Origin: Escherichia virus TH22
Sequence record: MT446396.1
Length of the DNA stretch: 64,000 nucleotides
Strand: one strand, 5' to 3'
Numbering within the stretch: position 1 is the first letter of the stretch; each line of letters starts with the position of its first letter. The notes beneath the pieces are model-generated. The model had not been told where the DNA came from. It ran no database searches and worked only from the letters and a program-made list of their open reading frames with translations. Of this stretch, positions 56,040 to 56,730 are shown in pieces. The translations under genes and the position numbers were made by a program.

Positions 56040-56275
56040 TGTCTGAACAAACTATTGAACAAAAACTGCAGTCCGAAATCGTTATCCTTAAATCCCGTAT
56101 TCTGGACACTCAAGACCAGGCTGGCCGCATTAAAGCTGAATCTGACCAGTTTGTTAATGCGCTTGGTCAGATTGCCCAACTGGTTGGCGTGACTGGTGAA
56201 ACTGTTAAACTGGAAGATGTTATCCAGGCGGTTGCTGATAAAATTGCCCCGGCTCCTGCGCCTGACGAAGAATAA
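56039..56275 (+). CDS. 57A: tail fibre assembly chaperone
   Basis: 78 aa (T4 gp57A 79 aa), coiled-coil; TAATG coupling to gene 1. Confidence 0.8.
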
Positions 56276-56730
56276 TGACATTAAATGAAGTCTCTGAAGG
56301 ACTTTATGTTGCAGCCAAATTTTCAGAATTAACTCTTGACGCGCTGGAAAATCTTCAGCGCTCTCTTAAGGTACCTAATCCCGTTCCTCGTGAAAAATTC
56401 CATTCCACTATTTGTTATTCCAGAGTAAATATTCCTTATGTTGTTGCTTCAGGTAGTTTCGAAGTAGCCAACTCGGGTCACCTGGAAGTATGGAAAACTG
56501 ACGACGGGAGTACCCTGGTTCTTGTACTGGATTCAGATTATCTTAGTTGCAGACATATGTATGCACGAGCCATTGGCGCAACACATGATTTCCCGGACTA
56601 CACTCCTCACATAACATTGTCTTACAATGTTGGTCCTTTGACGTATAAAGGAGAAGTTCAGATTCCGGTTGTTTTAGACCGTGAATATAAAGAACCGCTA
56701 AAATTAAATTGGTCGGCGGATTTAAAGTAA
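56275..56730 (+). CDS. 57B: 57B-like protein with two HxT/S motifs (2H phosphoesterase / LigT-like fold)
   Basis: 151 aa (T4 57B 152 aa); HSTI at about residue 53 and HITL at about residue 121. Confidence 0.6.

Follow-up and report, generated by a model that had tools for sequence, protein, structure and literature searches.

The DNA window analysed here, 64,000 nucleotides of Escherichia virus TH22 (sequence record MT446396.1), carries directly after gene 57A a small open reading frame (ORF) whose product has two histidine motifs of the kind found in 2H phosphoesterases, which raises the question of whether this protein heals RNA ends or serves another purpose. The ORF, at 56275-56730 (+), begins with ATG, encodes 151 amino acids (aa) and ends with a stop codon within these coordinates. 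It is almost certainly Acb1, the nuclease directed against the antiphage signalling system based on cyclic oligonucleotides (CBASS), and the T4 gp57B orthologue of a T-even phage resembling Gaprivervirus. Sequence, fold, catalytic and substrate-contact residues, and synteny together establish this identity.

Identification of the 57B-like protein as Acb1

The Pfam profile PF23474, "Anti-CBASS protein Acb1", matches the protein over its full length (200.6 bits, cut-off 27, E 1.2e-59), covering residues 8-148 of the protein and positions 1-143 of the 144 in the profile. The same domain is carried by 82 of the 83 database hits, the remaining one being a 99-aa fragment. A sequence search of the PDB returned Acb1 of Erwinia phage FBB1 as the best match (7T26/7T27, E 7e-63), with a second Acb1, from Burkholderia phage BCSR5 (9Q2G/9Q2Y), among the weaker ones. 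Identity is 68% to FBB1 Acb1 and 83% to T4 gp57B (NP_049750.1), with which the window protein aligns gap-free at an offset of one residue, being one residue shorter at its N-terminus. The first-pass annotation of this stretch had called the protein 57B-like, and the gap-free identity together with the shared gene order bears out this orthology. It had also described the function of 57B as not established, a statement that is outdated, since a 2022 study identified the T4 57B product as Acb1, the founding anti-CBASS nuclease (Hobbs et al. 2022, PMC9117128).

Residue roles for the catalytic tetrad and the substrate cage were taken from the published work (PMC9117128), with T4 numbers one higher than those of the window protein. 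All nine published functional residues, Y11, H43, T45, W73, F106, H112, T114, E140, and W146, are identical to T4. They comprise the tetrad (H44, T46, H113, and T115 in T4) and the cage, in which Y11, W73, F106, and W146 together with E140 correspond to Y12, W74, F107, W147, and E141. Because all nine are identical, we assign with high confidence the same predicted mechanism to the window protein, and by analogy this allele probably has the same activity as T4 Acb1. In FBB1 Acb1, W73 is replaced by F, with no other functional difference apparent.

Three points weigh against this assignment. Between the window protein and T4 Acb1, 25 of 151 residues differ, none of them at a published functional site. 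The enzymology stems from the T4 and FBB1 proteins and would have to carry over to this exact allele, and the suggested promoter and expression timing of acb1 derive from a motif match. No contradictions to the Acb1 assignment were found.

Catalytic motifs and fold

The first-pass annotation had pointed to HSTI and HITL motifs about 70 residues apart. Both are present, H-S-T-I at residues 43-46 (His codon 56401-56403) and H-I-T-L at residues 112-115 (His codon 56608-56610), with 69 residues separating H43 from H112. The protein has no further H-x-[ST] match; approximately 0.7 would be expected from composition alone, and a count of two on its own proves little. What makes the pair more than chance is the conservation of H43, T45, H112, and T114 across homologues. 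The four residues are invariant in an alignment of 32 sequences with identity down to 28%, and each is kept in 83 of 83 sequences of a larger alignment (the query, T4, and 81 database homologues), so that both histidines are conserved throughout the 57B homologues examined. In published Acb1, the H44A mutant and the H44A/H113A double mutant are inactive (PMC9117128).

An AlphaFold2 model built from the homologue alignment reached a mean predicted local distance difference test score (pLDDT) of 89.6 and a predicted template modelling score (pTM) of 0.82, with uncertainty confined to residues 1-5 and the far C-terminal end. The model is a compact structure of the 2H type, closed by a flexible C-terminal lid, and can be superposed on solved Acb1. 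The FBB1 structures have the same compact fold in the apo form (7T26) and with 3'3'-cyclic GMP-AMP (3'3'-cGAMP; 7T27) (PMC9117128). The low pLDDT of residues 144-151 in the apo model would fit a flexible lid. Within this segment, W146, the counterpart of the base-stacking W147, is W in 78 of the 83 aligned sequences. With two HxS/T motifs, conserved histidines and a pseudo-symmetric beta-sheet fold, the protein belongs to the 2H phosphoesterase superfamily, as the first-pass annotation had proposed; the predicted structure, which could have spoken against this assignment, has the 2H fold.

Chemistry and expected role in infection

T4 Acb1 and nine other homologues, all of those assayed being active, cleave 3'3'-cGAMP and cAAA and rescue phage from CBASS (PMC9117128). 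In the published description, Y12, W74, F107, and W147 form stacking contacts with the bases, E141 recognises the N6 of adenine, and the C-terminal lid (145-152) shuts over the ligand, with the scissile phosphate above the H44/T46/H113/T115 tetrad (PMC9117128). The reaction is metal-independent and proceeds in two steps, through a cyclic phosphate intermediate to GpAp with a 3'-phosphate (PMC9117128). The pocket admits only cyclic di- and trinucleotides; rings of more than three bases clash, and cyclic tetraadenylate (cA4) is left uncut (PMC9117128). Acb1 blocks CBASS effector activation in vitro, and its activity becomes detectable approximately 15 min into T4 infection (PMC9117128). T4 without acb1 grows normally in the absence of CBASS, whereas on CBASS hosts its titre drops by a factor of more than 300 (PMC9117128). 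Transposon sequencing likewise found 57B/acb1 dispensable on K-12 and acb1 insertions depleted on a CBASS-expressing host, and later work groups Acb1 with LigT-like viral immune-evasion phosphodiesterases (PDEs).

By analogy with the T4 (83%) and FBB1 (68%) proteins, from which we infer its chemistry, substrates and phenotype, the window protein would act as a small metal-independent 2H phosphodiesterase that captures the messengers made by CD-NTases (cGAS/DncV-like nucleotidyltransferases), namely 3'3'-cGAMP, cUA, cAAA, and cAAG. Its aromatic residues would stack on the ligand bases and the C-terminal lid would close over the ligand. The glutamate would read the adenine N6, and a twist of the adenosine would let its 2'-OH attack the 3'-5' phosphodiester. 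Acid-base catalysis by the two HxT motifs would yield a 2',3'-cyclic phosphate intermediate and then a linear 3'-phosphate product such as GpAp. With the signal removed, CBASS effectors (nucleases, phospholipases, and pore formers) would be expected to stay inactive, the infected cell would be spared abortive suicide, and the phage cycle could be completed. The gene is an unremarkable copy, and its product is an anti-defence enzyme already well characterised in function, structure, mechanism, and phenotype.

RNA repair and broader targets as alternatives

The first-pass annotation had read the two motifs as those of the LigT family and, with RNA ligase 2 (Rnl2) also in the window, had proposed an RNA-end healing and sealing repertoire. 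The protein would then be a LigT/ThpR-like RNA 2',3'-cyclic phosphodiesterase, healing the tRNA ends that host anticodon nucleases leave so that Rnl2 can seal them. The ligase is indeed encoded in the window and matches two Pfam domains (Table 1), and the 2H fold is common to both enzyme types, yet neither the family assignment nor the repair role is supported, and we consider this explanation highly improbable. LigT-type membership was rejected despite the common fold: PF13563 reached 11.9 bits, below its cut-off of 27 (E 0.24), over residues 91-121 only, and PF02834 was not reported in the Pfam search. Identity to LigT/ThpR structures from E. coli (4QAK), D. radiodurans (5H7F), and P. horikoshii (1VGJ) is only 12-15%, and these proteins are 170-185 aa long against 151 aa here. 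Unlike them, Acb1 is fitted to cyclic di- and trinucleotides by its lid and aromatic cage, and the bond it attacks is a 3'-5' one inside the ring, not an RNA end (PMC9117128). Its pocket, once shut over such a ligand, offers no path for a polynucleotide, and its 3'-phosphate product (GpAp) would need a phosphatase prior to ligation (PMC9117128). An RNA-repair module with Rnl2 was likewise rejected: the ligase gene lies at a distance of 36 kb, within the late structural cluster, convergent with a gene 24 homologue at 20057-21340 (-), and has no operon linkage with acb1, which is instead coupled to 57A. The phenotype of the T4 deletion is also CBASS-specific. The established T4 countermeasure to the anticodon nuclease PrrC is Pnkp (pseT) with Rnl1 (gene 63), a pair not known to need 57B.

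A side activity of Acb1 on the 2',3'-cyclic phosphate ends of short RNAs, or on other 2',3'-cyclic nucleotides, is conceivable because the second half-reaction already opens a 2',3'-cyclic phosphate. No Acb1 assay on RNA ends was found in the publications consulted, and we regard such moonlighting in the window protein as very unlikely; if true, it would tie Acb1 to RNA-damage defences such as anticodon nucleases. The LigT-like PDEs of eukaryotic viruses, including the avian poxvirus cGAMP PDE (9BKQ), coronavirus ns2 (4Z5V), and rotavirus VP3 (4RPT), share 10-14% identity with the window protein and form separate lineages within the fold. The substrate of ns2 and VP3 is linear 2'-5' oligoadenylate, not cyclic nucleotides.

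Besides CBASS, Acb1 might mainly blunt type III CRISPR signalling through cyclic triadenylate (cA3), or other systems based on cA3 or cyclic dinucleotides, and its presence would also make the phage detectable by Panoptes guard systems. In line with such a cost, type II Panoptes restricts Tevenvirinae phages with intact acb1 and escapers mutate the gene, and type I Panoptes is triggered by Acb1 overexpression in a plasmid assay. However, T4 without acb1 shows no change against the type I Panoptes OptSE, and cA4 is not cleavable by Acb1 (PMC9117128). A broader target range, already in the literature, would moreover extend the Acb1 explanation rather than replace it, and as the main role of the gene we judge it exceedingly improbable. 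As Acb1, the gene indicates a phage armed against CBASS, possibly also against type III CRISPR signalling through cA3, and potentially vulnerable to Panoptes guards that sense cyclic-nucleotide depletion.

Genomic context

acb1 sits in a phage genome, at a position syntenic with that of 57A-57B in T4 (Table 1). The order in the window is 3, 1, 57A, acb1, and internal proteins, and its T4 counterpart is 3, 1, 57A, 57B, and ipI. The TAA stop of 57A and the ATG of acb1 overlap by one base (TAATG, 56273-56277), and this overlap suggests that the two genes are probably co-transcribed and translationally coupled. A 2.2-kb segment around acb1 shares 98% identity with T-even phages of the Gaprivervirus type (fPSFA, UPEC01, and EAWsc9), and one of these records labels the counterpart "anti-CBASS protein Acb1".

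Table 1. Features of the acb1 locus and RNA ligase 2 in the 64,000-nucleotide window
Feature	Position	Strand	Description and basis
RNA ligase 2 (Rnl2)	19030-20037	+	335 aa; EKIHGTN lysine motif; Pfam RNA_ligase (PF09414) and T4_Rnl2_C (PF18043)
Gene 3 (tail completion protein, gp19-like fold)	54766-55365	+	Upstream of gene 1
Gene 1 (dNMP kinase)	55362..56039	+	Pfam PF21448 DNMK, E 4e-77; T4 annotation; anchors the synteny of the acb1 locus
TATAAATA, T4 late-promoter consensus	55821..55828	+	Motif search; inside gene 1, 211 nt upstream of 57A
Gene 57A (tail-fibre assembly chaperone)	56039..56275	+	78 codons; Pfam PF17594 GP57, E 3.8e-25; same order as in T4
acb1	56275..56730	+	Anti-CBASS 2H phosphodiesterase; 151 aa plus stop
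First catalytic HxT motif, H43-S44-T45 (T4 Acb1 H44/T46)	56401..56409	+	Sequence; 83/83 conserved; published tetrad
Second catalytic HxT motif, H112-I113-T114 (T4 Acb1 H113/T115)	56608..56616	+	Sequence; 83/83 conserved
C-terminal lid, residues 144-151 (FBB1 Acb1 145-152)	56704..56727	+	Gap-free T4 alignment; lid described in PMC9117128

Two further parts of the locus differ from T4. A homing endonuclease of the HNH type (224 aa) is encoded between gene 2 and gene 3, at 54006-54680 (+), matching phrog_655 (E 7e-57) and, weakly and slightly under the cut-off, the Pfam HNH domain. T4 and the 98%-identical EAWsc9 (gap at 3381-3467 of its segment) have no insert at this position, and the gene looks like a recent mobile insertion. 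Directly 3' of acb1, five small ORFs of 121, 90, 99, 80, and 77 aa occupy 56758-58298 (+), where T4 has the single gene ipI, which encodes an anti-restriction protein. Four of the five belong to PHROG families of internal head/virion proteins, and several share the N-terminus MKTYxEF or MKTFNEF. The run may represent a variable island of injected anti-defence proteins.

Expression signals

The TATAAATA match inside gene 1 is a candidate late promoter of the 57A-acb1 transcript, and T4 gene 1 likewise contains the late-promoter consensus, at a different offset. A late promoter here would fit the timing of Acb1 activity in T4 infection given above. Across the whole window, TATAAATA occurs 22 times against 4.9 expected. 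The minus strand carries 15 of these matches, all except one within 12.5-43 kb, a distribution that fits a late structural gene block on that strand. A generic sigma-70 scan around acb1 gave weak promoter-like matches only, which are uninformative for a T4-type phage, and a scan for intrinsic terminators around acb1 found no convincing one 3' of the gene. A hairpin, GTGTAGG-N14-CCTACAC, lies in the intergenic region at approximately 56743-56770 and has no T-run.

Consequences for annotation

The finding carries little weight as a discovery, as Acb1 was published in 2022 and has been independently confirmed since, and is useful mainly for annotation. An "RNA ligase" label persists for the family in RefSeq T4 (NC_000866 gene 57B, segment 3953-4411), in several T-even records, and in phrog_755, and many T-even records list the product as a "hypothetical protein". 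The "RNA ligase" label is a legacy inference from 2H/LigT similarity, superseded by Acb1. Such legacy names are misleading, and the correct label is Acb1.

Start coordinates and names also merit attention downstream of acb1. The ORF at 56758-57123 (+) was called mechanically from 56758, a start that is probably wrong because the PHROG match does not start until residue 14, a GGAG stands just 5' of an alternative ATG at 56791 (MNIKTYNEF...), and the EAWsc9 product has 110 aa. The EAWsc9 record names this 110-aa counterpart "profilin", which looks doubtful.

Among the database homologues, a 152-aa Acb1 that is 83% identical to the query represents a cluster of 167 members. One source gives it as a hypothetical protein from a 3-kb contig of Enterococcus faecalis, and the entry probably reflects T-even phage contamination in the assembly and not a Gram-positive homologue.
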